A stretch of 61,632 nt of DNA, the filler included, from Dugesia japonica (lineage: Eukaryota): assembly GCA_001938525.1 (NCBI GenBank). It is 6 parts of 6 records of this genome, joined end to end, with 100 filler letters (N's around TTAATTAATTAA, not from the genome) between each part and the next. Parts side by side here need not be neighbours in the genome. Positions count along the whole stretch, not along the records: positions 39,466 to 53,010 come from MQRL01618800.1; 5 more parts are not named here. One strand, 5' to 3'. The notes below the pieces were generated by a model. That model did no database searches. It was not told the DNA's origin and was given only the letters and a program-made list of their open reading frames with translations. Positions 25,942 to 60,934 of the stretch are shown here, in pieces (position 1 is the first letter of the stretch; the number at the start of each line of letters is the position of its first letter). The position numbers and the translations under genes are program-made.

Positions 25942-26002
<61 letters not shown>

Positions 26003-29628: not shown

Positions 29629-29789
29629 TTTACTCTAAAGGCGTGAAATTTGGAGGCAAAGGTGTGAAAAAAATACCTTNNNNNNNNNNNNNNNNNNNNN
29701 NNNNNNNNNNNNNNNNNNNNNNNTTAATTAATTAANNNNNNNNNNNNNNNNNNNNNNNNNNNNNNNNNNNNNNNNNNNNAAAAATTTAC

Positions 29790-32700: not shown

Positions 32701-35700
32701 GATATTTTAAACGAAAGAAGTGATTTAAAAAGAAACTAAAATGCCAAATTAACATTTAATGACTTAAATTATGAAACATTGAAATTTTTCTTAAAGTTAA
32801 AAGAATCTAATATTCCAGTGAGTACTTTTAATTGTTTTTCAAATTGTTGATGAAGAAACCTCAGAAGCCACGAAGGAAACTGTTAATTTCTAAATTCATT
32901 CAGAATTTAAAATATTTTTCTATTTAAAGTGGTACATTATTAATTGTAATTAATAAATACTTGAGTGCTGTTCATTAGTAATTTCACTAAGTAAAACATA
33001 TTCCAGATAAACATAATAAATCAGTGAGTAGTAAAATATTTATTTATTTATCTAATTTAGCCATGGTAACACCAAATTGCATCTTCTGATCACATTACTA
33101 TAAGCTATAATTCTTGTTTTTGAATATTTTTTATTAATTTAACGACATTAAGCTTTTTTTTAAAATAAAATATATTGGTAAATGGATACATTGTATATCA
33201 TATTGTTCCATATTTGCTACAAATCTAAAACATTCTATTATATTCATAGTGGTTTGTTCCTCAGTAATGTGAATTTGAAGTTAAATTCAATTTAATGAAA
33301 CAAAACAAAACCATTTAATTCGTAGAATTAATAAAAATAAATATTTATTTCATGTCAGTAATTGATTATTGTTATTTTATTATATCAGCCGCCTTATCAA
33401 AAACTGGAAATAATCATTTTAATTTATTTATTAATAAAAGAGAAAGAATTTGTGAAAGCAATCGAATTGCAAAGAATAAAATTTTTGGATTTTATAATTT
33501 AAATCCCTTAACCAATTAAAATATAAAAATTACCCACAAGTTTATCTACAATTAATTTATCAAAGCACTATTGACAAATATTAATTCACAAGTTCATTAA
33601 AATAAAGAAAAAGCTTCGATAAAAATAAAATGTATTTGTAATGAAATTCAAATTTTCGACAATTGTCTTCGTCAGGAACATTTTCATTAATATAAAAAAA
33701 TGCGGCGATAAAATTTATGATACAATAAATGGTTAAGTCCAACAATTATTCTCAAAATAATTGTAATTATTAAGTCACAATAATTAAATGTCTAAAAATT
33801 CAAATAGATTTTATTAATTATTTTTTCCACACATTTAAATAGTTAAGAAAAAATCAGTTAATGATATAAACTTACACTTTCAGATATACAATTTTGTACA
33901 GCTTCTTTAATTTTATTATTCAATTCATCTAAAATTATCTTCCGTCTACCAAAAAGTTCCAAAAATATTTTCTGTTTCTCTGGAACATTAATTGGCAAAT
34001 CTTCATCCAGTTGTAATGATGCACTATCATTTGTTATTGCACCTAGAAATAATATAAACTTTGTCAGAAATAGTTGTGATATGATCAATATACTAACTGC
34101 CTGCATAATTTGACGATGCAAGACTTATTTTAGACGAAGAACGAGATATCGCAATATCATTTTCCGGAATAAATGCATTTTGAGTAGATGGTCGAATTCT
34201 TTCTTTATTTCCGGAGTAGGTATTTGAAAGATTTTTCTTTATGTTATTTGGATTTCGTCGAGGAGTTGTTGTACTCATCACTCTCATACACTTAAAAAAT
34301 CACAATCAATATGTGACTAAATTTATAAATTCAAATAAGTCTGTAAAGCATCTAGATCAACGATGGGCCAACTGCGGCCTTATAAAGTTTCTATCCGGCC
34401 CGCGATGCCTTGTAAAGTCATCGTGAAAAAATAGGCAAGTAGTTGCCATCGGCAGTGAATGAGTGCAAACAGTTACCTGGTTTTTTTATGAAAATGTACT
34501 TTAAAAATTTAAGCATGTACTTGCAATGTTGTAGTTTACAACACAAAGCACTGTTGTGTATTAGGAATTTGTAAAAGTACTGTGATTCTACTATACATTA
34601 TTCATTTCGTGCGTAGTAAATGCAACACAAATATTTTTTAACATCACAAGTCTTTTATATTACACGGTTTATATGTTAATTTAAACATTTTCAAATTTAA
34701 TTTAAATATTTTTATTAACATTTTTTATTTTTATGTAATATATGAAGTTTTTAATTTTGAGTCGAATGGTATCAAAATATTTATGAAATATTATCATTAT
34801 ATATAACTATTATCATTATATATTATTTCGTAAAGAAAGCATATATTCGATAGCAATCCTTAAAAATTACATAAAAATAAAAAATGTTAATTTAAATATT
34901 TAAATTAACTTGTAAACCCTGTAATATTTTTGGTTTGTGGAAATGATTCCAGCAAATACCTAATTGTTATTTGTTTTTGTTACATAGTCATAGTTACATT
35001 CAAAAGAGCGTGATGGATTGTGATTTTTTAAACGGAATGAATAGAACTATTTCGTTAAATTTGACATTTATTAAAGAACATTTTATTTAATAAATCCCTA
35101 TGGTGCAATAGATAGCAGAGAACATAAGCTATATTCCGGGCCGGATTTTCTTATAGGCTAACTAGACTTCANNNNNNNNNNGCCTCTTTTCATCTAAATC
35201 CGGCCCTGGTTATATTTTATATATAAAGTTAATTTTTATGTAAAAACAATGTTTTAATAAAATAATTAATTGTACATATTTATCCTAGTTTCGAGATTGG
35301 CATCGAGTATTAAAAAAAGAAAAGTTGATTTAGAAAACAGAGCTTTTAAATATAAATGAACCTTGAAATATTCATTTACGGAACATGAAGAAAAATCTTC
35401 ATGTTTAATTTTATCTGAAATTATCAAAGACATTATCAATTAGAACATGCAAATTATGATAAATTCCATGACCTTTGGCTAAAAAGTTGAAAACTTTAAA
35501 AATCTACAAAAGAATTTTGTGAATATTGATAAGGAAAATTAAAATATTTTCACATATAAACTATGTACATGGATGGAATTTAAAAAAAATAATTGATTAA
35601 CTGAAGTTGACATAATGTATTAATTAATTTTATTTGATAGAATAACATTTAATTATTGATAATCCGAGAGATAATTATAGGCATCACTTTTCAGTATTCA

Positions 35701-38700
35701 TTTGTGCGATAGACGACGACAGTTGTAAGTCAGTTTGTATAACTAGATAAAATATAGATCATTCTTAATCAATTCCAATCATGAAATCGATTTGAGATTG
35801 ACTTTTCAATTGATATTTGTAGAATTTATAGACATGAAATTAAAATATAAAAGATTTAAAATTGATTATTTCCACTTAAACTCATATTTTCCAATTTCTA
35901 GAAACAATTTGCATTTTTGCTAATATTTCCATTAAATAGGTAATAGATAATAATAACAATTATTCTATGTTTTGAATTTCAAAATAAAAGTTAAATTAAA
36001 TTTTTTTATTTTTCATTATTACAAAACAGTTTGTTAATAAACTGATTTAAAAACTATTTTCCCTAAATGACAAAATTGAAAAAAATAAATCAATACATTA
36101 AAATGATATGATATAAAATGAGAAATCACAAATAAGAAATCGTAATAAATTCCTACATTGGAATTTTGATATAATTAGAATTGATGATTTTGTAGAACGA
36201 TTTAATAAATGTCGACAGGTAATTTATATCAATTTAAATAGATATGCAAGGCAGTAAGATTATTGAACAATAACATATCTCATCATTTCCAATTTATAAA
36301 AAAATTAACTTAATTTTTTTTAAAATAGAACTACTCCATAAAAGTTTTACTAACAAAATTATAGAAATTGAGGACTTGATTTATTTTATTGAATATTGGA
36401 AATTGATTAATAAATACAATTTAAAAATAATTATTAATTTAATTTTGTTGAAACCGATAATTTAACTTAATTATTGATTATGTAAATACACATGTGTAAA
36501 AATGTCAATTATAAATTTCCTATCAATCAATTTAACTATTAAATACTCACTAACACCGAGATTTATTGCATGGCGCCATTTATTACTGTTAAAATTTGTA
36601 AAGACAAATTTTTACAAAAGTAAAATAAATAAATGCGAAAATTTTTCTGTTACGTAACTAAATTTACTTTAAAAAATTGAAGTATATAAATCTGATAAAA
36701 CACTTTTAACGATAATTGATTTTAGTATTATTAATGAATGTAAATTATTATATTGACTTATAATAGTCAGAAATTAATACGTCATCTCTAACAATACTCT
36801 AATGTCAACTTAGTAGCTAATTATTTATGAATGCATTTAGAAATTACTTCAACCATTCATGAATAACAGAATACACTCAATTCTGTTTTTATGAGATGGA
36901 TACGTTCCTCAGAAAAAACGCATAAAAAGACACTACCTACGTTAAATAAATAGGGATAAGTTCCATAATTTTCGAAAACCGCATAAAACCAAATATATAG
37001 CCAATATATCGCAAAAAAAAGACCAAGTTACCCAAGAAGATAGGATTATGGTGGGTACCTTAAATCGTTTGAAGAAAGGAGGTTTATAAATTTAAAATAA
37101 ATTGTAATCAGAAGTCCAAAATTTATTTCTTTATTTCAATTTTCTTACTTAAAAATTAAATAATNNNNNNNNNNNNNNNTTATCTTCACTTGTTGACAAA
37201 ATTGTAAGGAGGAAAAGTCGCATAATTTTTAAATCGTATAAAAAATTCGAATAAAACCGAATTGAGTGTATTTTATTGACAAAATTTTAAATCATAACTA
37301 ATGAGGATTGTTGAAACATTATTTCATAATCGAAAATGATATCGTAATTATTAATAATCCTCTACATCAGTGTTTCCAAAAGTTTTACATCAAGCCCCCA
37401 TTATTTAATTGAGAAAATTCTTACTTTTCAAAAAAAAAAAACAGTAAACGCAAAGCAATCAACAAATTAACGTTGAAGATTATGATTATTATTTAATTCA
37501 GGGGAGGAGAAAGTGCGACTGCAGGGCCACATACGGGCATTTCCAACTTTTGAAATATTAATTTACTGTAATACAAAAATCCGACTGTTTCTATATTCCA
37601 CAGAAATTTATTTATTTTATGTGATTATGATGTGTATATAATAAACAGCTAAATATATTAAATTTTGCATTTTTTGTAATTAGAAAATAATATATTTCGA
37701 AATTAATGTTTGTGTGCGGCCCTATGAAAAATAGTTTCTTACTGTTGCAGACCTTTGACACAAAAGGTTCCCCATCTCTTCTTTAATTGATTATAAAGTA
37801 TAAATGATTAATTACTGAACTAGAAAATCTTTTTATTATTATGTTGCACAATTATTATTTCTACCTCATATTACAAAGGAATATGATGAAATAAAATGTT
37901 TATTCCTAAACTGGCCATTATTGTCTATTAATATTCTGTACAATCTCATTCTATATTAGGAGATTTCCGGAAATTCAAACTTTATTGAAATACTGTTGAA
38001 TTTTTCGTCGCGAACTCTTTATAAAACCCCACTTTTGTAAACACTGCTCTAGATTATGTGTGTCAAACACATTATGATTAGGATCCACTCTTAAATGTTT
38101 TTTATGACGCAAGTTAGAATAATATAATAGAATCGATTATAATTACGGTGTATTGTTATGGAATTTTTATAAAGTAAATTAATACATTGAATGTCAGTCA
38201 TGAAACACTTGCGTGGTATCTTATGTTGTCTTAAACGTTGAAATCTCGCGTCAGTTGGGCTGGTAATCAGTTTTTTTGTGTTGGCATTATGAGGATATTG
38301 TTAAAAGATGATATTTCGCATCTGTTTCAAGAAAGCCAAAACTGTTACATTGATAACTATTTGTCAAAATTAATAATACCTATACAACAAAAGTAGACCA
38401 GCTACTTAACTTCTTTCAATAACGTATACCAGATGTGAACGTGTTAAACAAAATATCAGAAATAAAATTTAAAGAATAAAATAATTTTAAAAATAGAAAA
38501 TCATCTAATCACACCACCAGATAGAATCTAGAAAAATAAACTACATTCACCTCAAATCTTTGGGAAATATAATTAACGATATCTTTTGCTAAATATATAA
38601 ATGATTTAGCTAAATTCTGATTTGGTAATTCGTATGAAATGCTCAGTGCAGTGCTCTTACGACGGATAGATGATCTAGAAAATACAAATTTTAGAAAATA

Positions 38701-38831
38701 TAGAAAATAGAAAATAAAAAGATTTCGTAAAATTATCAATAAATATGTTACCTATGAGTTGGATCTTGAATATCGATACTTATTCGAGATTTATTGTAAC
38801 TGATATTTGTGATTTCCGACCATTTGTATTC
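29790..38831 (-). CDS. Multi-exon host gene, FERM domain-containing protein 4 (FRMD4A/B)-like; partial, coordinates span introns
   Basis: GT-AG exons: 38752-38831 (YKWSEITNISYNKSRISIDIQDPTH, cf. FERM-C FQWRQLENLYFREKKFSVEVHDP), 38551-38674 (LAKSFIYLAKD..YISQR), about 34098-34290, 33876-34042 (RRKIILDELNNKIKEAVQNCISES, CUPID-like), about 32404-32508, 32238-32360 (coiled coil), about 31903-32165, about 29790-29975; several introns of about 43-77 nt. Confidence 0.6.
30946..31395. repeat. Intronic tandem repeat, about 48-bp unit
   Basis: gaaattatacaaattattttattgattatttattgatattacataatt repeated about 8-9 times, partly across a gap. Confidence 0.9.
34663..34921. mobile_element. Tc1/mariner-type MITE with TA TSD
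   Basis: TA-CACGGTTTA...ttaacattttttatttttatgtaat / attacataaaaataaaaaatgttaa...TAAACCCTG-TA. Confidence 0.75.
35136..35208. mobile_element. hAT MITE with 8-bp TSD
   Basis: TIR CCGGGCCGGATTT / AAATCCGGCCCTG; flanks GCTATATT / GTTATATT; small internal gap. Confidence 0.8.
36874..37268. mobile_element. Tc1/mariner (Tigger-like) MITE with TA TSD
   Basis: TA-CACTCAATTCTGTTTTTAT ... ATAAAACCGAATTGAGTG-TA. Confidence 0.8.
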
Positions 38832-40104
38832 CTAAATCGACCAAATCAATATATTCTCTCATTGTAAATTGATAATTCATAGTTATTATAATTTATATGT
38901 ATTATAAATGCAATGAATTAAGACATCTCATATCAATTACAAATGCTTCATATTATCGCATACAAACGTTTAACATAATTTTTCATACTTCAGATTGAAT
39001 CAAGGGTGCAAAACATATGGCCCAGTTATAATTATCATTTTTAAATTAAGTAAACAGATGGATTTTTAATTGAAAATCAATGATTATAGAACAATAAACA
39101 TTTCGCGATATTGATTATATTTGTTTTAAGTTATTTGTTTAATTACAAAAAAAATTAAAATAAAATTAAGAATCCATCTATCAATAAGTAATTAGTGTTT
39201 GTCTAATTTTCATTATAATCATTATTTGTATTCCACACCAAAAGAATCAGCAATTAATGTACTCAGTATATTCAATTTATGAAAGTTGTATTTTCTTTTC
39301 AAATAATCTTAACTGTGCATATCTGGCAGCTAATATGACATTTTATTGACAAAACACAAAAAATGNNNNNNNNNNNNNNNNNNNNNNNNNNNNNNNNNNN
39401 NNNNNNNNNTTAATTAATTAANNNNNNNNNNNNNNNNNNNNNNNNNNNNNNNNNNNNNNNNNNNNAGGAAGAGGAGTAATTGTCTCCTAAATAAAGACAA
39501 TTAGAAGTAAATTTTATTCTAGAGAATTAAGACACAAGAGTTACAAAGCCAAAACCGAAATATAATAGGCAATCAACGAGTCGGACTCTGACAAAATAGA
39601 TTCCGATTCAGAAAATAGGAAACCACTTACAAGGTCCAACACTTCTGGGATATTCACCTCAAGTACAGTCCTAAAAGAAAACCAACTCGCTCGACGAGGA
39701 TCAACAAGGAAACCCAAAAACTCATCACTCTATTTGGACTCAGAAGAGAATATTTGTTCATCCAGGAAATTAGAACTTGACAAGCCAAACCCCAAATCTA
39801 AAACGTTGGAACCCATCAGCTCAAGCAGTAGTCCGAGTGATAAAGAAAATAAAGCTAATCCAAAAACCACATCCAGTAAAACTCCAGTAGCTAGTAATCG
39901 ATCGAGTGGGATAAACTATACATCAGACAAAAAAGAAATCATAAAAGTAGCCGATAGTAATCAAGTAAATATCGACTCATTGGTAATACGGCCAAGCAAT
40001 TTAGAAACTGAAATACCTACATTAGCAAACCAAAACCCGAAAATGGAAACTAATCTCGCAAAAGATAAAAATATGGCAACTAAAACTGAAAACCATCGAC
40101 CAGA

Positions 40105-41000
40105 GTGAAAATAAAATTTGATGGCGAATATTTTAGCGGAATACCGGAAAAGTTAGATGAATTCATCCAGAATTACGAAATGTATGCCAAAATCTGTGGT
40201 TGGGACGAGGAAGCAAAAAGGAAGAGATTACCATTCTACTTGACAGGAGTAGCCAAAACGGTGTTCTGGGATCACACAAAGGGTATGGAAGCCATCCCCG
40301 ATAAATGGGAAGAAGTGGTGAAAATACTAACGGATAATTTCCAAAATTTAAAATTGACTGGCCAGGATTTCGAAAAATTCACGAATCGAAAACAACAAAG
40401 AGGAGAAACTTCACAAGCATATATGATGGAGCTCAAGAGGCGTGGCAAATTAGCCTTAGGAGACAAGTTGGAAGATAGTTAAGTACTCACCATCTTCTTG
40501 AATGGATTACGTGACGAGAACGCCAAGCTAATGGTAAAATTGAGCAAGCCAGTAACTCTACAAGATGCTCTAGCCACGTTGCGAATTGTAGGAGATAGAC
40601 CCTCAGAACGAATTTTGCAAAGTAGAAGGGCAGACAGAGGAAACCACACCACGGATATCAGATTTCATACCCAATACGCAATCAATGATGAAAACTCTGA
40701 CCCCAGGGCAGGAACGGAATAACCGAAATAACAGACCTAATTACCCACGAGGAAATGGAGGAGGATTTAATAACCTTCGGAACAATTGGCAAAATAATCG
40801 AGATATAAAATGTAATACCTATAGAAGACGGGGACATATAGCACGCGATTGTAGAAGCAGAAGTAATAATAACAACAACAATCGATTTTGCATTTATTGT
40901 AAGAAGACCAACCACAACATAGAAACGTGTTTCTTGAAAAATCCAACCGTCTGCTATAAGTGTAACAGAAGGGGACATATGGCAAAAGAATGTCAAAACG
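40105..41000 (+). pseudogene. gag: Gag capsid and three zinc knuckles
   Basis: FSGIPEKLDEFIQNYE...GWDEE...LPFYLTGVA..FW; RKQQRGETSQAYMMELK; FLNGL; CNTYRRRGHIARDC, CIYCKKTNHNIETC, CYKCNRRGHMAKEC. Confidence 0.9.
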
Positions 41001-41419
41001 GAAATCAAACAACTTACAATCGGAATCCGAATACGAATTTGGATAATCTAATGCAAGAAAATGAGAGATTAAGACAACGGGTAAATCAGAACAAGGGACA
41101 AGTTAATTTAGTGCACCAAAATACATTTGGCAATGTATACCACAAGGTGCAACAAGAAAATGATTGGCTCAAGTGGCAAAACCAAGATCTGCAGGTACAG
41201 CAAGAGAGACTCGCCAAAAGAAATCTGCTCAATGAACCGCACAAGAATCAGTGTAATATGGTCAGGACACACCGGCAAATTTATAACCAGTATGACGAAA
41301 CAACCGAAGTTACCGAAATGGAAGATACTCGAAAACGAATATTGATTACGTCGCCAGAATTTGACTGGACCGAAGAGATCATCTATAAAACAATAAAACC
41401 GTCGGTAACGACCACCGGA

Positions 41420-44400
41420 AGAAGACGGGTGATCAACCAGTTGCTCCGATTATATCAGCACCCACAAGTACACTCAAAGGTAAGGGCTAACTGGCAGAAA
41501 ACGATATCGGATTATATCACCGAGCTGTATAAAGAAACCCAGCTAAAAGACTATGAGTTCGAAATTCAATATATATGGCATAGCAACATAGAGGTCATTC
41601 CAAAACGAGTTAAGTTACTATTAAAAGGGTTGACTGTACGACATTTGAAAGAAGCTATGAATGAGATAAAATGGAGCGAAGTAAATGGTATCAAGGATAT
41701 GACTGTAAACCCGCTTCTCGAATTACCACTGTTTAACGTGCAGCAACGATGGAATGGAAAGTGGAGTGAGCACAGATTGCAATTAGGTAATATAGGAATC
41801 AATATTCTTCCAGATGACCGGAATCTAATATATTACGGAGCACGACCCCACGAAACTACCATAATTAAATTTATAAATTGGGATTCGGTATTCCGACCGC
41901 AAACAGTAATTCAGGAAATAGAAACCGACGAACTATATCATAATCTAGAAAAAACATTCCTAAAGAAAATTGTTCCCCTCCAGTCTCAAACGTACATGCG
42001 GAAAAGATTGGGGACAGTAAGGTTAATGGACCATCTGGAATTGGGGCAAATCGAAGCCCCAAGACTATCATTATCCCGAATTGATGAGATACTGGTAGCC
42101 GTCCAGAAACTCCATGATACCATCAGAAGGGATGTATACTTAAAATTGACGAATCGATTATTGGAGTTATTGGAAGTTATAAAATTGATCACCACTGAGG
42201 AAAGCGATTGGACAGAATGGTTACCTGTACATTACGATTGGGTAATATCCAATATGGGATTATCGGATTACCAAGTATGGTTGTATAACTCAGAAGGTAA
42301 AATGAAACTGACTCTTACGGGTTTAATGGTAGAAGATCTGGAATCAGCCCTGAATCAAGCAGGTTATCCATGTGTAACTGATAAATATGTATGTACTCCA
42401 GGTGCAATAGTAGATTTTAATGCAGAAAAAGACATATCTACGATTTCGGAAAAAACCAGGAGAAGAAATCAAACTGGTAATATTGGACAAACGATTACGA
42501 CATATGGGTAACGAAAACCGGAAGATTGGCATTGGAAATCATGAAAGAAATGGAATATCTGTATAAACAAGGAGTAGAACTTATAAAAATAAAGATACTT
42601 TCCACCGTGTTAGGAAAGAAAGACAAACTAACAAAGGAGGAGAGGAAACAGTTGCTAATGACGCGTAACGACTTCCTCAGGCAGCGAATGGAGAGCAGAG
42701 AGGGTAAATGCAACATGATAAAATGCGACAGATGCCATCGAGAGAGGTAGTAGCAATGCGTAAGGTGGAAGAAATGGTTAACCGAGTACAGATGGAATAG
42801 GAGAACTTACCCCGAGAAACCTATTGGATGATAATGAATAGAATCTACGATATATATGATGGACTAGAAATACCGGAGGCGATCGAGAACCAATGGCTCT
42901 TGATTAGGCAGAAGTATGCCAAAGAAATATTGGCAACTACCGAAATTCGGGATTATCAATTATATTTGAATATAGGTACAAATGAACAAGAATTGACTAA
43001 ATACAGCCGATTAAAACCACAAGGAATAACCATGATGGATTTAATGGATGCCATTACTGATAAGTGGCGAGAACAAGGATTAAAAATGGTACCTCTGTTC
43101 ATAAATGGCAAATTGGTAGAAACAGACGACGAGGATAAACACATATTCCAGTGCCATGCGAAGCCCGGAGAAATATGCGAGCTCGATGTAGAAGAAGATC
43201 CACGAATAGAGCGATCGCCAGATCTTGAGGAACGAATGGAAGAGATAACAGAATTATACGTATCCGAAGTATTGTCAGGTATAAAGGAACAAGTAAAAGA
43301 AAATCAGAAAATATAGAATATTGATAACTTACCAATAATCACCACAAAGTCAGTTGTATTTCCGGAAGGGACGCCAACAATACGTGATATTCGGATGAAC
43401 TATACCAAACCGATAACGGAGGAATCCGCCACGTTTCACGCTATCAATGATCTACTAAGAGTAACATGAGAAACGCGATCAGTAGTGAATATCAGGGTAT
43501 ATTGGAAAATGATGAATAACTTACGGGATTTGGCAATCTATGGGAAACTCAGTTTGTGGGCTCGAGCACAATGGTGGAAAGAGAAAAATCTATACGAAGA
43601 AGAAGTACAAAATACGTCCATCATATCCGACTACTCCATCAGAGTTAGTTTGCTCAACAAGGAAGGGCACATAAAAAGGTAGATATGATAACCTTNNNNN
43701 NNNNNNNNNNNNNNNNNNNNNNNNNNNNNNNNNNNNNNNNNNNNNAACTATCCGACACATTTTGAAACCTATAAAAAAATGGTTATGGCCAAAATCGATC
43801 AAGTCCTATAAAATGCAGGTGGGAGCAACCATGATCATACTAACCAAGAAAGAGGATCACATTTTCTTACATGATATTAAACCAGGAGAGGTTACAGATA
43901 TCAAGTTAACACCTCAGAAGATGACGGTAGATATTCCGATACCGAAGATGCCGGATACCGATCAACTTATATTCAACATGATGAGTTTGTATATACAAGA
44001 AATACTACCGGTAGAGAATGAAAGACTCATAAACACTTATGGCGAAAATAAAGCCCAAATAAACATGGTTCGGAGTAAAAACCATGACACCCCAGACCTA
44101 ACCTCAGATGAAGAAGAGCCGGAGGAGGAAATTTCGGAGGATATTGGTCAAGCCCGATTGTTACCATTTAAACAGGATTTCGCTGGTCCTTTCAGTTCTC
44201 CACAGACAGAGCGGATATCGAAGATAATTGCGGATTTTTGTTACTTCCAGGAAAGGATACCTCGAGTAAAGCATTAAATTTACTAATGGATCTGACAAAG
44301 TATACTGAAATAGCAAGGGAAGTTCGTGCCAAGTGGGAATCAGTAATCAAGCCGTATATTGGTACAGTGAAAGCAAGTGCCAGGGGAGAAGATTTTCAAG

Positions 44401-45910
44401 TCACGATAGAATATCTGACACCAAACAAGAAACCAAGGAAGGAACCAGAATCGGCTGTCATGCACATACCACATTTTAACAGCACGTCAGCGAGGGAATT
44501 ACAGGAAATTTTAACATCATTAGATATAGCTGACCAACAGAAAAGCTATGCGATTACAAGCGACCACTTGAGATTTCCGATAAAGTTTGAAGGAAAACAA
44601 CATCTAATGGACGTAGGGTTAAAACCCGGAGAAAATACATGTCTCCAAATACAGAAACTAGAGGATTACATTCCAGGCCCAGTAAAATCTATGGAGGAAG
44701 TAATACAACAATTATTGGAATTATACGAACAAGAAATCAACAGTGGACAGTTATTTGAAATAGTCGACGATAGAACAATGGAGATTAATATTGAATCATG
44801 GGAAGACAGTAAAACATGGGGAAGTTTAGCACGAGTGATAATGAAAATACTCTTAACCTTGGAAGAAAACTTGGAATTATTAAGACATGACAAAGTCATT
44901 CAATTAGTTCTGAAGCTAAATCAATTACGAGCCATAAGTCAAATGCCTGAAGACATAATGGATGTAATATTAAATAAAGCGGTTCAAATGATAACCAAAG
45001 AAGCCGTCAAAGTAACAATCAGATTTCCCGACGAAAGTGAAATTCGTTGGCAAATCCACATGAACGAACTATGGGCCAAGTTGCGGAAGAGGATTGTAAA
45101 ATTTATGAATCAACAACGTAGCCTCGACGAGGAGGAAACTGGAGCGCAAACAGCAGTCCAGGAAGACGACATAGTACTCTATTACAATCACGTAATAGAA
45201 TCAGACCAAATGAGGTTGCCAGTGAAATATATGGGGGTTTGGCCAGGTACTAAATCAAAAATTTATGTAACAGCAAAGGATGAAAAGAGACGACGACCAC
45301 GAGTCTCGGAGGAGAAGTGTAAGTAGAAAGCTAGGGAGTTGGTGGAATATTACGTAGAAGAGATACATCCATTAGTATTCGCTAGGGCTAAACTCACCAC
45401 ACAAGAACAAAATAAACAACGAGTAAAGATGGTAGCAGCTCTGACTAACACCCCGGTCAAAGACGAGAAGCTGGAAGACAATTTACCGAAATTGTTCGAA
45501 TTACTAGTAGGCGATAAGTTGATAAAGCCGGAAATTATACGACGATACAATATAGCCTTACAACAAGATCTGGCCGTAGAAGATCTCAGAAAATTGCGAC
45601 GATTAATACTAGCCATCAAAGTAGCACATGTATGGGATCCAGTTCAGTTCAATAAGATTCTGGTTAAATGGCGGAAAGCAGAGAGGGGCCAGCCCACGCC
45701 ATTGGAAGTTAAATTCAGAATAATTGATCCAGAAGGGGACAAAATCGCGGTTAGAATACCAGTATATAATACAATCAAACACATACGGGATAAGTTACCG
45801 TTTAAGTCACCATACAAACTCTTGGATGAGGACGGAATAGTGGAAGACATCACCATGATTGGATTGATGAAAATAGATTTAGTTAAACCTAATACGTTGT
45901 GGATTTTTCC
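41420..45910 (+). pseudogene. Cargo: about 7 tandem diverged modules, each helical + ubiquitin-like beta-grasp
   Basis: Recurring N.LL.L...W...Y...D(Y/F)(Q/E) followed by T..(D/H)L and a (K/R/W)PGE-hydrophobic strand; last modules align by eye to ubiquitin. Confidence 0.55.
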
Positions 45911-46643
45911 CGAATTAGGAGGTACTCTCACTCGAAAAGACACAGATCCTTTCAAAGTGGCAGGCAAAACTAGGCCAATAATGGGAGAAACCTCAGGTAT
46001 GCTAAAAGAATATAAACACCGCACACAACTAGCGGCTAGTCAAATATTAAGACCCACAACAGATCAATCGGGAAGCACAGAAGTATCCCGAGAAACTAAA
46101 GAAACTCCTAGAACAAGCCAAGATTGGGAACGCGAAATATTTGGATCACCATCAGCAGACGAGTCAGCCGAAGACGAAGACGAGTTACAAATTACAAAAT
46201 ATTCGCCTCCAACTAGAAAAAGGGAGGAAAGAAAGGATAAAGAGCCGACACAAAGTAAAAAATACGACCCTAGCAAGGTTGATTTCGATGAGGAAGACGT
46301 ATTGGACGACCAACCCTTGTCACCGATATTAAGCAGAATAGCCAAGGAATTGCCATCTTCGGTAATGGATGATTTGATGGATACAAACCACCCACTAGAG
46401 ATGGAAAATCCAATGGAAATAGAAGACGAGGAAGTACCGCCAAAGCCAGTACGCACCCATTTTGATGCGGAAACCATTACGGAACCACAAAATAGAGGCC
46501 GACCAAGAACGAAACCTCCGGGAAATCCAGGGGAGGAAGAGGCAATGAAACAAAAACTATTAACAACATCAATAAGTCATCAAACTAAGCGACTAGCAAC
46601 GGTATCTCAAGAAAGATACCACGAAAATCCAACAGATGATGAC

Positions 46644-46920
46644 ATGCCAACCGAAGTAGTAATACGGCAGTTACTGCTAATGTTATATTCAGAATTAAAA
46701 ATATGGATTGGGAAGTTTCAACTATCAGATACTCTCAGACCACTGGCAAAAGAAATAGAAGCAGCTATTAAGAAATTCCCTGCCATTAAAGGCACCAGTC
46801 ATGGTACCAGAGATAATTTAGAAGGAGTCATGGACGAATTACTACAAGATCAGCCAACAAAGGGACGAATAGTAGTATCTTTAGCACATCTGATTAATCA
46901 AACGCATCTATCAATCGCTA
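46644..46920 (+). pseudogene. Bcl-2-like domain (BH3 + BH1), C-terminally truncated
   Basis: SDTLRPLAKEIE (BH3-like, cf. LRRIGDELE), then at Bcl-2-like spacing NLEGVMDELLQDQPTKGRIVVSL (BH1, cf. FEQVVNELFRDGVNWGRIVAF). Confidence 0.6.
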
Positions 46921-46935
46921 GAAGCAAGTCGTCAA

Positions 46936-47986
46936 AAAACTTCATTCTCAGTAAATTACCGAATGCAAGATACCATCGGGCGAATGTACCACGATCTTAT
47001 TCAAAATGACTGCACATTGAATAAAGAAATATTGAAGACAAAGTTAGCAATGGCGGTTACAAATCCAGATAGTGTCACTCCACTACTTATCTCTGGAAAA
47101 GGGACAATTCGGTTGAGTAGTAGGAGAAGTAATGTACCTATACAAATGCAAGGCCATAGATGCCGAGTTCTCATCTAATCCCAAAAACTGCTACAATGAG
47201 ATAGAAATCATACATAATAACGAGAAACGATACGTGCAACCAATTACGCGAATCATATCATCACTGGGTTATAAGCCAAATATCATAAATTGCTCTAATG
47301 TATTCGGACCACAGTATATAATGACCGATGGTTCATGGATAAGATTCCCCCAACGAATGGCAAAGGGGATCGAACCACGAAAATTCTCAATGTTACGATT
47401 AAATGGAGGTATGCAATTCACCCCAATTGATATAAACAAAGGAGGAATATATAGCTGAGAAGATTTAGAAAAGGCAAGAGAATATATCTTGTTCCCAGTC
47501 CGGAGAATGCAAATCTTATCCAACATAGTGCAATTAACTAGTGGAACTAACATAGACGGATGAGTAAATTATGACGCATTATTATCAGCAGACCACTTTC
47601 AAAAGGCCACAGAGAATGTAATGCGGAAAATGTGGGGACGATTTATCATATTTGGACAAGCGATGGCAGGATTGTTGGTAGTTATGCTGATAATTTTGGT
47701 AACACGAGTAGTGATTACTCAATTGTTCGCATGTTTTGATATATACAAAAGAGAGAAGAAAGTGAATTGGAAAATGGTAACNNNNNNNNNNNNNNNNNNN
47801 NNNNNNNNNATGGTGCTTAATAGTCACTCCAAGGATATTGACAGAGTAAAGAGATTCATTCGGAAGCTCGGACAAATACGAGGATCAGACAAGGAAGTTA
47901 TAATGCAACTCAGACTATTATGCGAAGAAATGAGCAACGCAAAAAAGAAAATATCTTATTTCAACCAATTCAAAGAAAGATTTTAG
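46936..47986 (+). pseudogene. Chuvirus-like (Jingchuvirales) class III glycoprotein/env, C-terminal half with TM helix
   Basis: MYHDLIQNDCTLNKEIL...NPD...G...VVGEVMYLYKC...CYNEI....NN...VQPITRII...CSNVFGPQY...W...GGIYS*EDLEKAREYILFP...MWGRFIIFGQAMAGLLVVMLIILVTRVVI. Confidence 0.8.
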
Positions 47987-48569
47987 AATAAAGACGAAAG
48001 TAGTAGTAGCAGCGACGACGATAGAGGGGAAAGCAGTGGAGCCCCTCATGTACCCAGTTATAAAACTGCCATGGAATACCATGCGGAATTCAAAAAACAG
48101 CAATACGAAAAGATCAGTAAGATGCAAAGACTAAAAAATGCGCTAAAATTCGGAGGAGGAGAAAGCACGCCAGCACCAGCACAAATGTATTATAACGCTT
48201 ATCCGCAACATGGTTGGNNNNNNNNNNNNNNNNNNNNNNNNNNNNNNNNNNNNNNNNNNNNNNNNNNGAGAAAGCACGCCAGCACCAGCACAAATGTATT
48301 ATAACGCTTATCCGCAACATGGTTGGCAACCCATGAACCAATTACCTCAACAAGTATGGGCACCAGGTCCCCTGTACAACAATCCGTATATAAGCCCACC
48401 ACAAGCTCCCAATATGGCACTATTAACGAAGAACAATGTATCAACTATGGACCGAAGAATAATCGAACAAAACCTGCGCACTCCAAATAACCAAATTACG
48501 GAGCAGGATAAGTTAGAGACTCAAACTGTATGTATGATGATCTCTCAGAAAGCAAAATTATTACAGAAA

Positions 48570-48880
48570 AGGATAAAAATCGACGGAAGATGGGTAATAG
48601 CTATTATTGATACAGGGGCAAGTACGAAGTTAGTCCATAAAAGGATATTAGAAGATTATCGCCTACTTAGAATAACAATCACTAAAGGAGTTATCATCAC
48701 TGCCTCTGGAGAAAAAATCTCACCAGTGGGAGAAGCAATATGTGCGATAGAAAGCGATGGAACCCAATTCTGGCATAAACTGCAAATAATGAACGAATTA
48801 ACATTCGACTGTTTATTGGGGTTGGACCTCTTACCACGCCTTTGTCCGGAAGGAATACTGGATTTGAGAAAATTAACAAT
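48570..48880 (+). pseudogene. Aspartic protease 1
   Basis: IAIIDTGASTKLV (DTG at 48609-48617), ITASGE, CLLGLDLL. Confidence 0.85.
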
Positions 48881-49184
48881 ACGGGAAAACTATAATCAAG
48901 AAAATGCACCGGTAGGATATCAGAAAACCCGAATAATAACCTAACAGAAACGACCACAACAATGGAATCAGCCACCACCCAACCAGCTGAGACAGCGGCC
49001 AACTGGCCGAAATGAGCAAAACAATTCGAATCAAGACCGTCGGAAAATCACCAATACAGCCACCTTGATAAGGGACGATTGGATAAGGTTCCAAGAACGA
49101 GAACCAAGATGGAAAAACAAAATACCAACAAACTCTAGTCATAACCCTTCAGATGTAGTATGCGCAAGTCTCAATGGCGGACCG

Positions 49185-49510
49185 GTATTAACCATTATAG
49201 TTAAAATCAACGGCTGACCCATAACAGCTCTAGTGGACACCAGAGCAACCATATCATTGCTGTCGATAGATGAAATCGCGATAACCGAATACAAAAACAT
49301 ACTACCCACAAACACTATAGATGATGTGGCAAATGGTAGTAGCCTCAAAATCTTTGGAGAATTGGCCTGTGAAGTCGAATATCAGGATAACAAAATTAAA
49401 CATAATATGATTATAGTAGAAATGATGGGACAGTGCATTCTAGGAACAAATATTCTTCCAGTCTTGATGAAAAATGGTATATTGAACTTCGCGACATTGC
49501 GGTTACAATC
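49185..49510 (+). pseudogene. Aspartic protease 2
   Basis: ALVDTRATISLL (DTG mutated to DTR), VANGSSL, CILGTNIL. Confidence 0.82.
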
Positions 49511-49849
49511 ATCGGAAGGTTATACCCACGTAAAGGATCACGAGGTATTTACTACAGAAGAAATTGTGGTACCTAGTAGATTCCAAGTATCTTGCGTAGT
49601 CAGTACCAAAAGTGCCTATGAAGAAGATTGTTATTTGAACCGTATGACGGATTTGCACACCAGTACGAGCTACCCACGACAGGAGGAATAACCGCGGTCA
49701 ACAAAAGTGGGGAAGTACCAGTTAGCTTAGTTAATTTAAGCCAAACTCCAGGATGGGTACACTAACCCCCATCGAACCAGAACCCGAGGTGATAGAAGAA
49801 ACAGCCCCTGAACCGGAAATTGATAGAACATTTAAAGTGGAAACGGAAA

Positions 49850-52420
49850 CTTTGTCAGAAGACCAGAAACAAGCAATACTTCAATTTTTGGAAGAATTCC
49901 GAGATATTTTCGCATGAACCAATGAAGAGTTGGGTGTGTGCATCGCAACAATGCACACAATTCCATTAACGGATGAAACGCCATGTAAACAGAAACCATA
50001 AGCCATGACAGTGGAGAAAAAAGAATTTGCAAATAAAGAAACAGCTAAGTTAGTGAAAATCGGTGTGATAGAACCTAGCTGCTCACCATGGCAGTCACCA
50101 GTGGTGTTAGTAGATAAAAAGGATGGGACACAACGATTCTGTATTGATTACCGAAGATTAAATGCTCAAACTAAAAAGGATACTTATCCGTTGCCAGATA
50201 TCAACGAATTATTGCAACTACTATGTAATGCTAAGATATTCACCACGTTGGATCTGCGAAGCGATTACTGGCAAATAAAAATCAAACCAGAAGATAGAGA
50301 GAAAACGGCTTTTTCCACATGCAAAGACTTGTATTAGTTTATCCGTATGCCATTTGGACTTACTAATGCAACAGCCTCTTTCCAACGAATGAGGAATTAC
50401 GTAACTCACGGCATATCTCAATGTATGGCCTATATTGATGATCTAATAATCTATTCGCCAACCTTTGAAGGGCACCTTAATGACTTACGTAGTGTGTTTG
50501 TACGACTACGTAAATGGAATCTAAAAGTGAAACCCACCAAATGCGAATGGGCCAAGAATAAAGTAACATATTTAGGCCATTTAATATCGGATAAAGGCAA
50601 AGAACCGGATCCGTGAAATACGGAGAAGATACGAAATCTAGCACCGCCAAATTGTGGGCTTAAAATAAAGGAATTTCTCGGTCTCGCGAACTATTATCGA
50701 AAATTCATTAAGGATTTCGCTAAAATTGCGAAGCTGATGCAGGAGTTGGTTAAACAAGATACTGCCTTTATATCTGGACCACAACAACAACAGTCGTTTG
50801 AATCATTAAGAGATAAATTACTAACTGCACCAATTTTGGTACACCCTGATTTCAAGAAGCCATTTATATTAGCCACCGACGCGAGTGGATACGCGATGGG
50901 TGCAGTGTTGAGTCAATTAGATGAACAAGGCAGAGAAAGAGTAATCGCATATTTTAGCAAGAAATTTCAAGGGGCAGAGTTAAACTACAGTACTACAGAA
51001 CGAAAAATAATGGCTATTGTAAAAGCCACCAAACATTTCCGATCACTCATACACGGTCACGAAGTATTAATTTACACGGATCATTTACCAATCACTTTCG
51101 TGGCACAAAAAACACTACGATGGAATAGAATGGCAAAATGGCAACTAGCAATGCAAGATTATTGTCCTCTATTAAAATTTAAAACGGACAAAGCCAACTC
51201 AAATGCGGATTGTCTGTCAAGAATCGGTGGACCAGAAGTCACAGAGGATGCACCAGAAGACACAGAAACATTTACATTGCGAGAATTATTAGAGAAAAAA
51301 GTAGGAATGGTATACTTTATACTAGCTGAAGATAGAAACTTCGATGGATTAAAACAAGCACAGGCAGATGACGAGGAGATCAAGATCATCACGAAATATA
51401 TGGAAAATTATAACTTGGAGAAGTTAGAATGTGAACCTAAGATGAAGGAATATTTAAAGAAAAACGGAGGGCGTTATGCGGTCACTAAAGAATGGCTGAC
51501 AGCTCAAGATGGAGAAAACACCGTGTTAGTCATCCCTAAAGCAAGACGGGATAAATTACTTGAACAGTATCACAATGGTGTACTTGGCGGACACATGTCT
51601 CATAAGAAAACCAAATCCAAATTAAGGCAGAAATATTACTGGCCACATATGACAGAATCAGTGAAGGAATGGATTGCTAAATGCCAGATATGTGCTGCCA
51701 GACGAGGAACAGGAAAAAGAGTAAAGGCGTTATTAAAACCTATTGCAGTACCAGCGATGCCAATGGAAATCATAGCTATGGACGTAGTTGGACCATTACC
51801 ACCAACCCTAAGCGGAAATATCTACATACTTTCCATAATGGATTATTATTTCCAAAGGCATTTCCTATGAAAAATCAAAAAGCAACCACCATAGCAGATA
51901 TTCTGGTACGAAAGTTTTTCAGTAGATACGGTACTCCGAAGAAAATATTGACCGACCAAGGAAAAAATTTCATGAGCAATATAATAGCAGAGATATCAAA
52001 CTTCCTCAAAATACACCAACTACGGACATTACCGTATCATCCTCAGACGGATGGATTAACAGAGAGGTTTAATAAAACCCTGATCAATATGTTGTCCAGT
52101 TACGCTCAAAAGGAACAAAATAACTGGGATAAACATATTCAACTATGCCTATTTGCATATCGGATGAGTGTTCAACCAGCAACTAAATACACTCCATTCG
52201 GCCTTATGTATGGCAGAGAGTGCAACATGCCTATTGATTTGGAATTCCAACCACCGATAACACAATATCAAGACGAAACAGATTTTGCGGCCAATTTCAA
52301 GGAGACCATGCAGAAAATATGGAAACAAGCCAAGGAGAATGTAGGATTCTACCAAGAAAGTTATAAAGATTTACACGATATAACAGCCGTGCAACATTCC
52401 TTTAAAAAAGGCGAATTTCA
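49850..52420 (+). pseudogene. pol: RT - RNase H - integrase
   Basis: SPWQSPVVLVDKKDGTQRFCIDYRRLN, RMPFGL.NA.ASFQ, AYIDDLII, LATDASGYAMGAVLSQ, YTDH, ADCLSR, HNGVLGGH...CQIC, MDVVGP, TDQG, YHPQTDGLTERFN. Confidence 0.96.
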
Positions 52421-54394
52421 TGAATTTCATTGGAATTATCTCATTGGAAATTTTACCTTATTATGGAAATATAACATAATCTGAACTTATGGTGCTGTCT
52501 GTGGGGATTGAAAAGAAAAATATTTTTTTATCGCAATTACCCAATCATGCTTAGTGGGACAATTTTCGTTTAATTTGGCATAGAGCAAATAATTAATTGA
52601 AATATAATTTTAGTTTTCTCTTCATGATCATTTAGTTATTATCAAAGGTTTATTAAATTTAAAACTATGTTTATTGAACATTTTTATTATCAAATTGACA
52701 AATAATATAACAACAAAATTTTTTACTTTTAATATTAAGGAGTGAGTCTGCAACGGGTGACGCAAATGTGCTTTGAGATTCCAATTACTATTTCAATTTC
52801 TACTTTGATTTCTCTTTTTTCTGTNCTGCTAACTGAGTAGTTTTCTCCTGCTTGATTAAACAGTAATCTTCTGAACGTTTTTTTTTCAAAGTTATAAATC
52901 CACGGAATTTACAATGGTGCGGTTTAGTATTAATAGTTTTCACAAAAATTGTAGTGTTTTGACAGTTGGTTTTAGTTAGTTTTTTGGTTAGTTTTCTGCT
53001 AAAACCAGGGNNNNNNNNNNNNNNNNNNNNNNNNNNNNNNNNNNNNNNNNNNNNTTAATTAATTAANNNNNNNNNNNNNNNNNNNNNNNNNNNNNNNNNN
53101 NNNNNNNNNNAACCGCTCGGATGACATATATCCTCGCTACACCACTGAATATCACTTCTTTGTCGCAAAACACGGATTAATTAACATATTTCTGAAAAAT
53201 AATTCACATAAAAATTTTATTTTTCTTTATTCATTAATCTATCATCAATTAATTTTCTAATTTAATAAAGTTATTAAATTTCAGTTTTTCATTGTCTATT
53301 GTTTTCAAATTTTAACAATAAAATCTTTTAAAAACGTTTCCTATTGAGAATTATGTTGATTATTTTCAGTATCATGCAGTCAAAATATAAAATTTTAAAA
53401 ATCAAATTTTATTTAAATTAATAGTAGAATTAAAATAATTAAAAAATAATTTTGTTTTGTCGGAATAATTTTTTCTAATTAAATTTGAAAACCATTTCAA
53501 GAGAAAATTGAAATTTATGTAGTTATTACATGAAATTCCCGACCAACTCTGAATAATAATTATTTTATATTGTATTCATTTTTTTTAATGTCTAACAAAA
53601 TTTTTAAATAATTCAGAAATTTAATCGTTTATACAAAACTATTTATTTTATTAAATTAATAATTAAAAGCGATTGTAAAATTTGTGATGGATAAATATGA
53701 ACAATAAATGTGATATCAATCAAAATTGAGATAAATATTTTTTCCGGACAAAATGTTACAAAATAACAAAGAAAACATTTTTATCCTTATTTTATAATTA
53801 ATAAATTGGTTTGAATATTAAGTCTTTTCATATTAAATCAAATAAGCAAAATACTGAAAGCCCAATTCCTTTATAATATGATATATTTCCAATTTCAGAT
53901 TAAAGCAATTTTCAAATCTTTAAAACCATCCTTTGATGATTTGCAGGCCATCAACATTTAGCCATTGTCTAAGTTAATTTACTTTAGTAATAATAATTTC
54001 ATCAGTCAGATAGCCATTTAACGCATCCATTCGAGATATTCATTCGATCAATGAATTCTTAAGCAGAGAATGATTGTTGAAAGAATGTCTAGTGTTAGTG
54101 TTTGAACTCTAAAAATTTTCCTCATTATTCTTTATTTTTCTAAATTTCTGACAACGCAGATAGCGATAAGTCCAGGTTTAATTCTCTTTTGATAATTTAA
54201 AACAATTCAATCAGCGAAATTTTATTCGACTCCTTCATTATCCGATTAATTTAAACAAAAACTATCAGATATTTTTCAAAAATCGCTTTTCGATTACGGA
54301 TCGTGAAATTTCGGATTATTGAATTAAATATTACTGGAAACGTTAAAAAATTGAGAAAAAGTTTATAAATTTATAAAATACTTTTCAAATAGAA

Positions 54395-54545
54395 TAAATT
54401 TGATATAAAATACATTTTCTATAAAATAAATTTCCTAAAAAATCAATTTCCTATAAAATACTTTTTATATAAAATACTTTTCATATAAAATACTTTTCAT
54501 ATAAAATACTTTTCATATAAAATAAATTTCCTATAAAATATATTC
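54395..54545. repeat. Subterminal tandem repeats (about 16-bp TATAAAATACTTTTCA) of a Mutator/Phantom-like end
   Basis: Repeats directly visible, just upstream of a MULE transposase remnant. Confidence 0.7.
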
Positions 54546-54624
54546 CCTTTATCATTATTCTCTTTTATCATTATTTGTAAATATATATATATTAAAAGAA
54601 TATTAATTTTCTATTCTGATTTTA

Positions 54625-55200
54625 GGATTAGGTCATTAATAAGAAGTCCACATTTGCACTTCGATGGTACTTTCGATACCGTGCCGTCGAAGAAGAATTA
54701 TTTAGTACATTTAGAAAATTAGTTGCGCTGTCTCCAGATTCTCTAAATAAATTTCTTAATTATCTTGGTAGAAATTATATAGGTATCGAATTTGATGGAT
54801 TGTGTTGAAAAACGACCACTTCAAAATTTGCTGTTGACATCTGGAATTATTTTAATTCCACTATTCTAGGCTATCGTAGTACTAATAATGTAGTGGAAGG
54901 CTGGCACTCACGACTTCAAAGAGCTACATTAATTGAGCATGGCACAATATGGAAGTTTATTGAATTTTTAAAAAACAATGAAAGAGACAATGAAGTTTTA
55001 TTTACTCAAATAATTGCAGTATATACTAAAAAAAGACCCCCAATAAAGAAAAAGTATGTTGTGAACAATTAAAAAATAGAAGTGATTGTTAGCTCATATG
55101 CTGAATATAAAAGAAACGATAAGATCTGTTAGTATCTGTTAACTATTTAAAGACTATTAAAAATAACTTCTTAAATATTGAAAAGAACAACAATAAAATT
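54625..55200 (+). mobile_element. MULE transposase remnant, internally deleted
   Basis: HLHFDGTFDTVP; FLNYLGRNYIG; FAVDIWN; STNNVVEGWHSRL; TIWKFIEFLK. Confidence 0.85.
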
Positions 55201-58222: not shown

Positions 58223-60690
58223 CAAGCCTGCACAACATATGGCCCGTAAGGTTTTTTGATGCGGCCCTCAACCCTTTTTAAAATTTCATAAAAATGTCAA
58301 ATAAAAAATCGAAATTTATATTTTTGTTTCTTATATAAAGCCTTTTTATTATTTTTTCTACGCAATTTAATAAAATTTTCTGTATTTCATTAAAAATTGT
58401 TTATGACCTCTCCATAAAAAATATTTCCAACGCTTTAATTATTTTTAATTCGAAAATTTTATTTCGATTTGTTATTTTATATCAAATTATTTATATAACT
58501 TTAGCTGCACTATAGAATTTTTCAAATGTTTTTACGTTTTCATTTTTAAAATAACTTTAGTGTATTTATTTTATTGATAAGAGAACATTTGCTTCTTTTA
58601 TAATTTAAAAAAATTATATTTAAAGCTTAATTAATTTAAACATTTAATACTATAAGTTAAATTAATTTAAAAATTTATATAATAGATTATACAATGAGTG
58701 AAAAGAAAAATATAAACTGAGCGTAGAATATTTACTGGGAATGGACAACCCGATATCTATTTACTTTATTGCAAGATAAGATAATTTGTCTCGTTTGCCG
58801 TGAAACAATACCAGTCTTAAAGGAATATAATCTTCGTCGCCACTTTGACACCAAACACCAAACATTTAAATTTGATGAAAAAAAGAAAAAACACAAAGCA
58901 GCGACTTTAATGTCAGCCATAAGTGAAGAGCAAAACATTTTAAAGAACATTGTAGCAGAGAATAAAACAGAAACTCGCGTAAGTTTTCAGATTTCAAACG
59001 AAATTGCTGCTGGAAAAGTCTTTATTGAAGGGGAATTTGTGAAGGAATGTATGTTAATGGCAGTTTTTAATTTATGTCCGGAAAAAAAGAAAAGGTTTGA
59101 GAATTTTAGCTTATCAAATATGACAGTACAAAGAAGAATAACTGAAATTTCAGCAAATATCAATGATCAACTCAAAAAAAAGCTCGGGAATTTTCATTCT
59201 TTCATTTGTGTATGAACGAAAGTACAGATTTACAAGATATTGTCCAACTTAATGTTTTTATTAGGAGAATTGATTAACATTTTAATATTACTGAGAAGTT
59301 TGTTGGAATATGCTCCATATCTGGACGCACGACAGGAAAAGTATTATTTAATGAAATGACAAAATGTTTGACCGACAATTTGAATATTGATTTTTCTAAC
59401 TTGGAAGCCCTTTGAACAGATGGCACCCCAACTATGTGTGGAAAAAATATTGGTGCTGACACACTCCTTTAAGAATTTACTGGGAAGAAAATTATACAAT
59501 TACACTATATTGTGCATCTTTTAACTTTTGAATATGTAATGAAAGTGATAGTTTATGTTGTTAACTATATTCGATCTAGTGNACTTAAGCATANAACTTT
59601 TAAGGCTTTTTTAGAAGAAGTGGATAATTGAGTGGATAAGTGGTTGAGCCGTGGACGGACGCTACAGCATTTTGTTGATTTGAGATCCGAAATTGTTGCT
59701 TTTCTTCAAAATAAATCACGAAAATTTCTTGAACTTCAAGATGACGCTTGGAATTTCGATTTATTTTTCTTCTGTGATATTATACAGCATTTGAATGATT
59801 TGAATATGCTACTTCAAGAAAAAAAAACAATCTATATTTTGAATTGTTAGCTGCCGTGAGAGCTTTTAAAATAACGTTGAAACTTTTCAGAAGTAAATTT
59901 TTAAAAAGTGAAATGTCTCATTTTCCTACTTGCAAGCAACAAACAAAATAAATCAAGAACAATAATATGCAGAACAAGTCAATTGGCAAAGAATTTGAGA
60001 GAAGATTTGCCTTATCTGATGAAACATAGGGTCATCTAAAAATAATTGAAGATCCATTTTCTGTTGACATTGAACATGTACCACTTGAGTTGCAGTTTAA
60101 GGTTATTGAATTCCTGTTTTCAATATATTTTATAAAAGGAATTACAGGGAAAAAACTTACTGAATTTTTACAAAAGTTGGGACAAATATAAAAAAAGGAA
60201 TAGAATTTGCAATTAAAATGCTCAGCATTTTTGGTAGCACTTACTTATGCAAACAAATCTTTTCACTAATGAATTTTAATAAAAATAAACATCGTTCTTG
60301 TAATTGCAATTATTGTGAGAATAATTAATGGACTTTACCATTGATTGTATTTGAGATTTCATTAAAATAAAGAAAAGCTTCAATCAAAATAAAATGATCA
60401 AAACTTTTTTTCATTTTTTATTGAAATCGTTCTTGTCTTACAAATGAACACATGAAAGACATTTTAAGAACAGCAACATGAAATATGACACCAGAATATG
60501 ATAAGCTTGTCAAGAAAAAGAAGTGCAATACTTCTCATTAAATTTTTTAAAGATATATTTTATTAATATAATTTAAAACATATTTTTTTTACTTTATTAT
60601 TATCAAACATAGTCTTTTATATTAATTCTGGACCTCAACAATTTTCCCTGAAATTCTTGACCCTTAAAGCAATCTAAGTTGTGTTGTTTC
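58223..60690 (+). mobile_element. hAT transposon, SPIN/GTF2IRD2-like transposase pseudogene
   Basis: Left end CAAGCCTGCACAAC; ICLVCRETIPVLKEYNLRRHFDTKH; GEFVKECM; ESTDLQDIVQL; TDGTPTMCG; WLSRG; FGSTYLC; degenerate right end near ...AAGTTGTG. Confidence 0.9.
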
Positions 60691-60720
60691 AAGTATTCTT
60701 TCTAATTCTTCCAAATATTT

Positions 60721-60816
60721 AACAAATTTAGTTGCAGCATCTTCTCCAAAGTATTCTATATATCTAGATTCTAGATATATAGAATACTTTGGAGAAGATA
60801 TGCAACTAAATTTGTT
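60721..60816. repeat. Near-perfect 96-bp hairpin
   Basis: aacaaatttagttgca..atcttctccaaagtattctatatatctaga-t-tctagatatatagaatactttggagaagat.tgcaactaaatttgtt. Confidence 0.92.
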
Positions 60817-60934
60817 TATTTTCCAATTATCTATTATTTTTTTAATTGTCTATTCGTTGATTAATACAATCATATATAACATTACATATTATTAACTTAA
60901 TAATTAATAATAATTATTAACATTAATAACTTTG

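Follow-up and report, generated by a model that had tools for sequence, protein, structure and literature searches.

The window, a 61,632-nt stretch of Dugesia japonica DNA (assembly GCA_001938525.1), carries on its plus strand the C-terminal half of an envelope glycoprotein gene (env). We consider it very probable that this half belongs to a dead, high-copy Ty3/gypsy copy of gag-env-pol layout, likely a planarian Burro-like element, whose N-terminal half of env was lost by internal deletion, and the element is possibly a member of an already catalogued family. As found, it has little import, being a dead copy of an already described kind of element. The features of the copy are collected in Table 1.

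Table 1. Features of the Ty3/gypsy copy, in coordinates of the window
Feature	Position	Strand	Evidence or remark
Decayed high-copy Ty3/gypsy copy, gag-env-pol layout	39466..52450	+	5'- and 3'-truncated; GC, contig depth
gag, with a core like Retrotrans_gag and three Zn knuckles, of which the first is degenerate	40090..41000	+	Pfam
Long accessory coding region, continuing from gag	41000..45665	+	ORFs of 639, 171, 200 and 384 aa
Candidate ubiquitin/SUMO-like domain	45666..45929	+	Single-sequence model, PDB fold matches
Candidate Bcl-2-like domain, end cut by deletion	46629..46962	+	Profile of relatives' pre-env domain
Internal deletion junction	46958..46962	+	Removed env signal stretch, N-half and end of upstream domain
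env C-terminal half: chuvirus-type/gB-type ectodomain and membrane anchor	46963..47780	+	PF24664, P0154 similarity, model
Cytoplasmic tail and linker to protease	47781..48550	+	Spans two assembly gaps
Aspartic protease 1, DTG intact	48570..48830	+	gag-asp_proteas, E 7.6e-6
Aspartic protease 2, degenerate in window copy	49185..49475	+	RVP, E 0.0068; 35 % to P0154
Reverse transcriptase, RNase H, integrase, in Gypsy order	49735..52415	+	RVT_1, RT_RNaseH (E 4.5e-36), Integrase_H2C2, rve

The window strings together unplaced contigs, joined by linkers (44 N, 12 nt, 44 N, at 8356, 19505, 29680, 39366 and 53011), so that adjacency across a linker carries no meaning. Almost all of the contig at 39466–53010 is filled by an element of raised GC, 36–41 % as compared with 15–36 % for the remaining bins, on which the summed contig depth, which is not a copy number, ranged from 6,216 to 83,937 versus 151 in the flank bin (X1). 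Sister contigs covering the whole element came from four DNA runs, which belong to three studies. The contig opens at a linker, inside the element, and the copy stops near 52,450, leaving about 13 kb visible; neither an LTR nor a long direct repeat was found in the contig. Reads over 46700–47600 were informative neither way on expression, with seven in X10, all less than 90 % alike, and none in X13. A Pfam run on 15 ORFs of the window returned, in order along the plus strand, Retrotrans_gag, Zn knuckles, a glycoprotein piece, two aspartic proteases, reverse transcriptase (RT), RNase H (RH) and integrase (IN), while Pao peptidase and the other Pao families gave no match among these ORFs, and a BEL/Pao identity of the host was rejected. 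The gene order, the YIDD motif of RT and the lack of Pao domains together identify the element as Ty3/gypsy. The Gypsy host proposed in the initial annotation is thus borne out by gag, two proteases (PR), RT with YIDD, RT_RNaseH, H2C2 and rve, as is the position of env upstream of pol, between gag and PR-PR-RT-RH-IN.

All of the motifs that had been claimed for the glycoprotein were present in the translation, although its start is at 46963 rather than 46936, the stretch 46936–46962 being part of the upstream domain, to the left of the deletion. The first frame contains MYHDLIQNDCTL, upstream of a one-base frameshift near 47089–47090, after which follow GEVMYLYKC, CYNE, PITRI, Cys...P.Y (with a C-to-P spacing of five residues, one above the earlier pattern), GIYS*EDL..REYILFP, WGRFIIFGQAMAG and a hydrophobic membrane anchor at about 47645–47701 (Kyte-Doolittle 2.72). 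Three pieces matched PF24664 (Monjiviricetes_fusion, 653 positions), all over the curated cut-off, at model positions 320–369 (E 3.8e-7), 374–480 (E 2.3e-15) and 520–578 (E 2e-8). With its stops read as X, the env query matched 495 proteins at E≤1e-3 in a database of 1.84 billion representatives, including the G protein of Wufeng shrew chuvirus 6 (29 % identity, E 3e-17), and was 48 % identical over 278 aa to P0154, whose similarity extends to 47914. Two word-index searches, of the env piece against proteins of 388–2,000 aa and of the ORF at 45327–47006 against proteins of 308–980 aa, gave no match, which is weak evidence since the other search found the 495 env relatives. An AlphaFold model of env built from 128 sequences (pLDDT 85.6, pTM 0.41) matched 19 viral models in BFVD at E≤1e-3, nearly all of them chu-like or related glycoproteins. 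Among solved structures, a Foldseek search of the PDB with this model gave no match at E≤1e-3, and PDB sequence searches with env and with the Bcl-2 and ubiquitin-like (Ubl) candidates had no match below E 0.4. The chuviral-G-like identity suggested by the initial annotation is therefore borne out by PF24664 and the chu-like models; of the proposed comparison with chuviral G and gB, the PF24664 and chuvirus G side held, while herpes-type gB appeared only at E 0.41, as pseudorabies gB domain IV in the first row of the Foldseek result, which is a hint at most. We conclude that what the segment encodes is the membrane-anchored C-terminal half of a class III-like glycoprotein of chuvirus type (PF24664), the class III assignment resting on family membership and on PMC13524379 because no solved structure passed.

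The closest relatives of env were intact single polyproteins of 2,300–4,800 aa with gag-env-pol or env-pol content. A full env followed by PR-RT-RH-IN in one ORF was found in P0154 (4,099 aa), P0156, P0158, P0007, P0008 and P0054, and gag stood additionally at the N-terminus of P0167 (21 cluster members), P0168, P0169 and P0172; in P0169 the order was zf-CCHC, ubiquitin/PF11976, env, ankyrin, PR, RT, RH, IN. P0154 was colinear with the window across env, tail, PR, RT, RH and IN. The N-half and the predicted internal signal, for which a search of intact copies had been proposed, do exist in the relatives, with a hydrophobic stretch at the start of env in 12 of 12. One polyprotein with env-PR-RT-RH-IN, P0007 (HBK71150.1), is deposited at NCBI as a protein of a Flavobacteriaceae metagenome-assembled genome, and probably reflects animal sequence that was wrongly assigned to a bacterial bin.

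To place env among its matches, we used a midpoint-rooted tree of 147 rows (146 of 161 matches plus the window, the 15 that covered <165 query residues being left out), with SH-aLRT support and without bootstrap. The window paired with P0154 (support 99) inside a group of 24 rows (SH-aLRT 92, below the 95 mark) that held all 14 rows from retroelement polyproteins, while the named chuvirus G P0040 and 66 of the 67 stand-alone proteins of 600–720 aa lay outside of it. Over eight elements, the identities of env and of RT-RH were correlated (r 0.81; 3 of 40,320 permutations), a correlation that speaks for joint inheritance and not for function, since elements that are related have received both genes from common ancestors. 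Third codon positions accounted for 25 of the 34 variable places listed in env (p 2e-6; 40 of 164 places listed). Judging from these comparisons, env has descended together with pol and has been maintained by selection; because it groups with retroelement envs and co-varies with RT, it is an old resident passed down with pol, not a recent capture.

The initial annotation had instead proposed a recent independent capture of chuvirus G by the host Gypsy lineage. Such an origin would agree with the homology of env to real chu-like G proteins (29 % to that of Wufeng shrew chuvirus 6, and chu-like proteins as the top BFVD matches), and GAG-ENV-POL elements are not monophyletic according to the accessible part of PMC13524379, which leaves several old captures or rearrangements possible. 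However, env was 35–54 % identical to retroelement envs versus 21–30 % to stand-alone G, it groups with all 14 retroelement rows and tracks RT, and the same layout recurs in many distant elements. The idea of a new acquisition is thus largely refuted, and we regard it as very unlikely.

The loss of the N-half of env is explained by the internal deletion in the window copy, which removed about 345 env codons, with 10 of the 14 conserved cysteines, as calculated from the start of the window env near residue 820 of P0154, whose own env begins near residue 474. A profile of the N-half searched against the window gave no match (best E 0.13), while the same profile recovered all 5 of the held-out controls. 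In the window copy the reading frame is not kept across the join, and env, besides its frameshift, is interrupted by in-frame stops (47114, 47456, 47561, 47984) and by an N gap (47782–47809). At the first three of these stops, 96–100 % of the sister depth had another letter. The window copy is dead, given the internal deletion, stops and frameshift, and cannot be infectious.

Among the loose ends listed for the region 46700–47600 (12 of 203 rows), sister contigs departed from the window behind 46962 (13 in X1, 11 in X5) and joined it before 46958/46963 (8+12 in X1, 8 in X5), and none of the 16 pieces listed of 4,476 bridged 46958–46963 with 31 letters per side. We read the deletion as private to the window copy. 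A sub-family that shares the junction and keeps the C-half alone, as a membrane anchor of the polyprotein or a decoy, would fit the third-position bias in the C-half, and the contig evidence comes from the 16 listed pieces and 12 listed rows; nevertheless, sister contigs diverged on both sides of the junction in two studies, none of the listed pieces crossed it, the join is out of frame and the long relatives have a full env, which makes a family-wide half-env highly improbable.

Within X1, contig depth was 31,917–66,412 over env and 34,726–74,728 over RT-RH-IN, against the 151 of the flank. Since sister depth equals that of pol, the relatives are polyproteins and env tracks RT, env is an integral part of the element and did not arrive as a viral insertion of its own. 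The fragmented assembly with N gaps at 47782 and 48218 and the frequent position of chuviral G pieces beside Gypsy pieces in insects (PMC10084718, in its accessible part) might suggest that an independent piece of an endogenous chuvirus had landed in an ordinary Gypsy copy or been joined to it by mis-assembly. That possibility is refuted by the contigs of X1 and X3 that bridge the first gap, by the colinearity of P0154 from env to IN and by the equal depth of env and pol.

Upstream of env, the gag region matched PF03732 (E 0.0035) and PF00098 (E 1.8e-5), with knuckles at 40811, 40889 and 40952, and resembled the N-termini of P0167–P0169 and P0172. The accessory region that follows was present in sister contigs and gave nothing over the Pfam cut-off, leaving about 5.7 kb without a match between gag and env. 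The two candidate domains that precede env were each negative in one of two tests. For the first, all 47 PDB matches listed for the model (pLDDT 40) were ubiquitin, SUMO, UBX, ISG15 or other Ubl folds (E 0.002–0.013), while a Ubl profile built from relatives did not detect it; the model points, weakly, to a probable ubiquitin/SUMO-like domain. The second ranked first of 931 six-frame pieces with a six-sequence profile of the relatives' pre-env domain (E 6e-4) and reached E 1.6 with a three-sequence profile; the link to Bcl-2 passes through the relative P0005, which has a Pfam Bcl-2 match (E 1e-3), and the candidate itself had no Pfam or PDB match and no usable match in the ESM Atlas. By profile similarity it is a probable, weakly indicated, Bcl-2-like domain. 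Just before the Ubl candidate, at 45342–45793, the depth of X1 sister contigs fell to 6,216 versus 25,000–40,000 around it, which suggests that this part has diverged more or is frequently deleted.

Downstream of the anchor, contigs of X1 and X3 bridged 47749–47968 free of gaps. A second gap of 50 N (48218–48267) is flanked by 59 nt that are identical at 48159–48217 and 48268–48326, and the duplication is probably an assembly overlap, not a real repeat; the env frame stays open as far as this gap, beyond which that peptide picks up again in the PR frame, while upstream of env the deletion interrupts the continuity. Tandem aspartic proteases between env and RT were also seen in P0004, P0008, P0009, P0010, P0018, P0156 and P0158, the last with up to six protease-like stretches. 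The RT-RH part was 54 % identical to that of P0154, and the RT-RNase H-integrase region of the window copy has stops and a frameshift. In P0154, P0158, P0167 and P0169 the polyprotein continues for 600–1,600 aa past the integrase, with hydrophobic stretches, and the window copy ends before any such part.

Among known systems, Burro/GYPSM1 are giant, high-copy Gypsy LTR retrotransposons of dugesiid planarians, in which, as described in the accessible part of PMC6431247, gag with three knuckles, SUMO-like and BCL2-like domains are present, env lies in frame between gag and pol, and the Burro env matches mononegaviral fusion proteins. By this published description, the window element shares with them Gag with three CCHC knuckles, a long accessory region, a high copy number and an env between gag and PR-RT-RH-IN, with the continuity of a single ORF read from the relatives; the order of the candidate Ubl, the candidate Bcl-2 and env would be the Burro layout, an order that P0169 shows clearly. 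In contrast to Burro-1, the domains MATH_TRAF, BIR, ankyrin and dUTPase were not detected in the window by Pfam (15 ORFs, plus 49461–49691), the copy being truncated, and we therefore filed the element as Burro-like, not as Burro-1; among the relatives, ankyrin was found in P0158 and P0169 only. Burro/GYPSM1 exceed 25–30 kb with LTRs as compared with the 13 kb visible here, and the window element has tandem proteases, of which the accessible part of the Burro account (PMC6431247) makes no mention. A search by titles and abstract openings, with subscription journals largely outside of its range, found no experiments on the function of Burro env or on particles. BURRO1 RNA is reported to rise in animals in which PIWI silencing has been knocked down (PMC8532177).

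The accessible part of PMC13524379 describes gB-type GAG-ENV-POL Gypsy elements in Platyhelminthes, Nematoda and Bryozoa, including six Schmidtea mediterranea families (Smed_errantivirus_1-6, with 1–215 intact copies listed), and 114 arthropod gypsy elements with a chuvirus-like G. The Ty3/gypsy pol, a gB/chuvirus-type env before pol and the multi-copy state are common to these errantiviruses and the window element. Their env has a signal or transmembrane segment before it and a transmembrane segment after it; the window copy retains the anchor, with its N-half deleted and the full length found in relatives, and is decayed, unlike the elements listed. The Smed_errantivirus supplement, where accessible, consists of env domains I–II, which the window copy has lost. 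The window element also corrects the premise of the initial annotation that the env of Gypsy elements is invariably of the F type and located after pol, and the position that the annotation had called unusual has been published, in frame as gag-env-pol, for Burro (PMC6431247) and for gB-type elements (PMC13524379), by the accessible text of both.

Anakin, the mosquito BEL/Pao elements with chuvirus G described in PMC7642597 (accessible part), are likewise LTR retrotransposons that bear the same glycoprotein family, while the window element is Gypsy, not BEL/Pao, and holds env inside the polyprotein, upstream of pol. With the G of Jingchuvirales/Monjiviricetes it shares the Cys pattern, motifs, PF24664 profile and fold match; the viral G, in contrast, exists as a protein on its own, about 650 aa long, at the identities of 21–30 % given above, and the element env falls in a separate tree group. 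The accessible part of PMC10084718 reported no clear Gypsy capture of chuviral G in arthropods as of 2023, which is near the picture drawn by the initial annotation.

In the intact family, one long RNA would give one polyprotein, of which Gag and the accessory ubiquitin-like and Bcl-2-like modules would remain cytosolic, while the internal signal stretch would direct the env ectodomain into the ER and the C-terminal anchor would stop transfer, bringing PR-RT-RH-IN back to the cytosol. Env, Gag and Pol would then be cut free by signal peptidase along with proteases encoded by the element itself, and a trimeric class III fusogen on budding enveloped particles would allow cell-to-cell passage. 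A joint reading goes further: the intact family may be an enveloped, infectious retrovirus of invertebrates that, in the manner of flaviviruses, obtains capsid, fusogen and enzymes from a single polyprotein threaded through the membrane, with the two tandem proteases processing the two cytosolic halves, the Bcl-2-like and SUMO-like modules keeping producer cells alive, spread occurring between adult stem cells, and the env lineage perhaps being a sister lineage of chuviral G, or its source, instead of a descendant. Taken as a whole, we consider this reading doubtful.

Elsewhere in the window, by eye, we take 8958–9411, 11348–14001, 15496–17551 and 26621–27465 to be other decayed Gypsy-like pieces (gag, knuckles, protease, RNase H, integrase), while 27580–28108, 60664–61399 and 23069–23536 look like pieces of Maverick/Polinton genes for DNA polymerase B and capsid, and 595–822, 54537–55072 and 58727–59850 like pieces of transposases of the pogo/Tigger, MULE and hAT/SPIN types. 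An AT-rich tandem array with a unit of 48 nt lies at 30899–31452.
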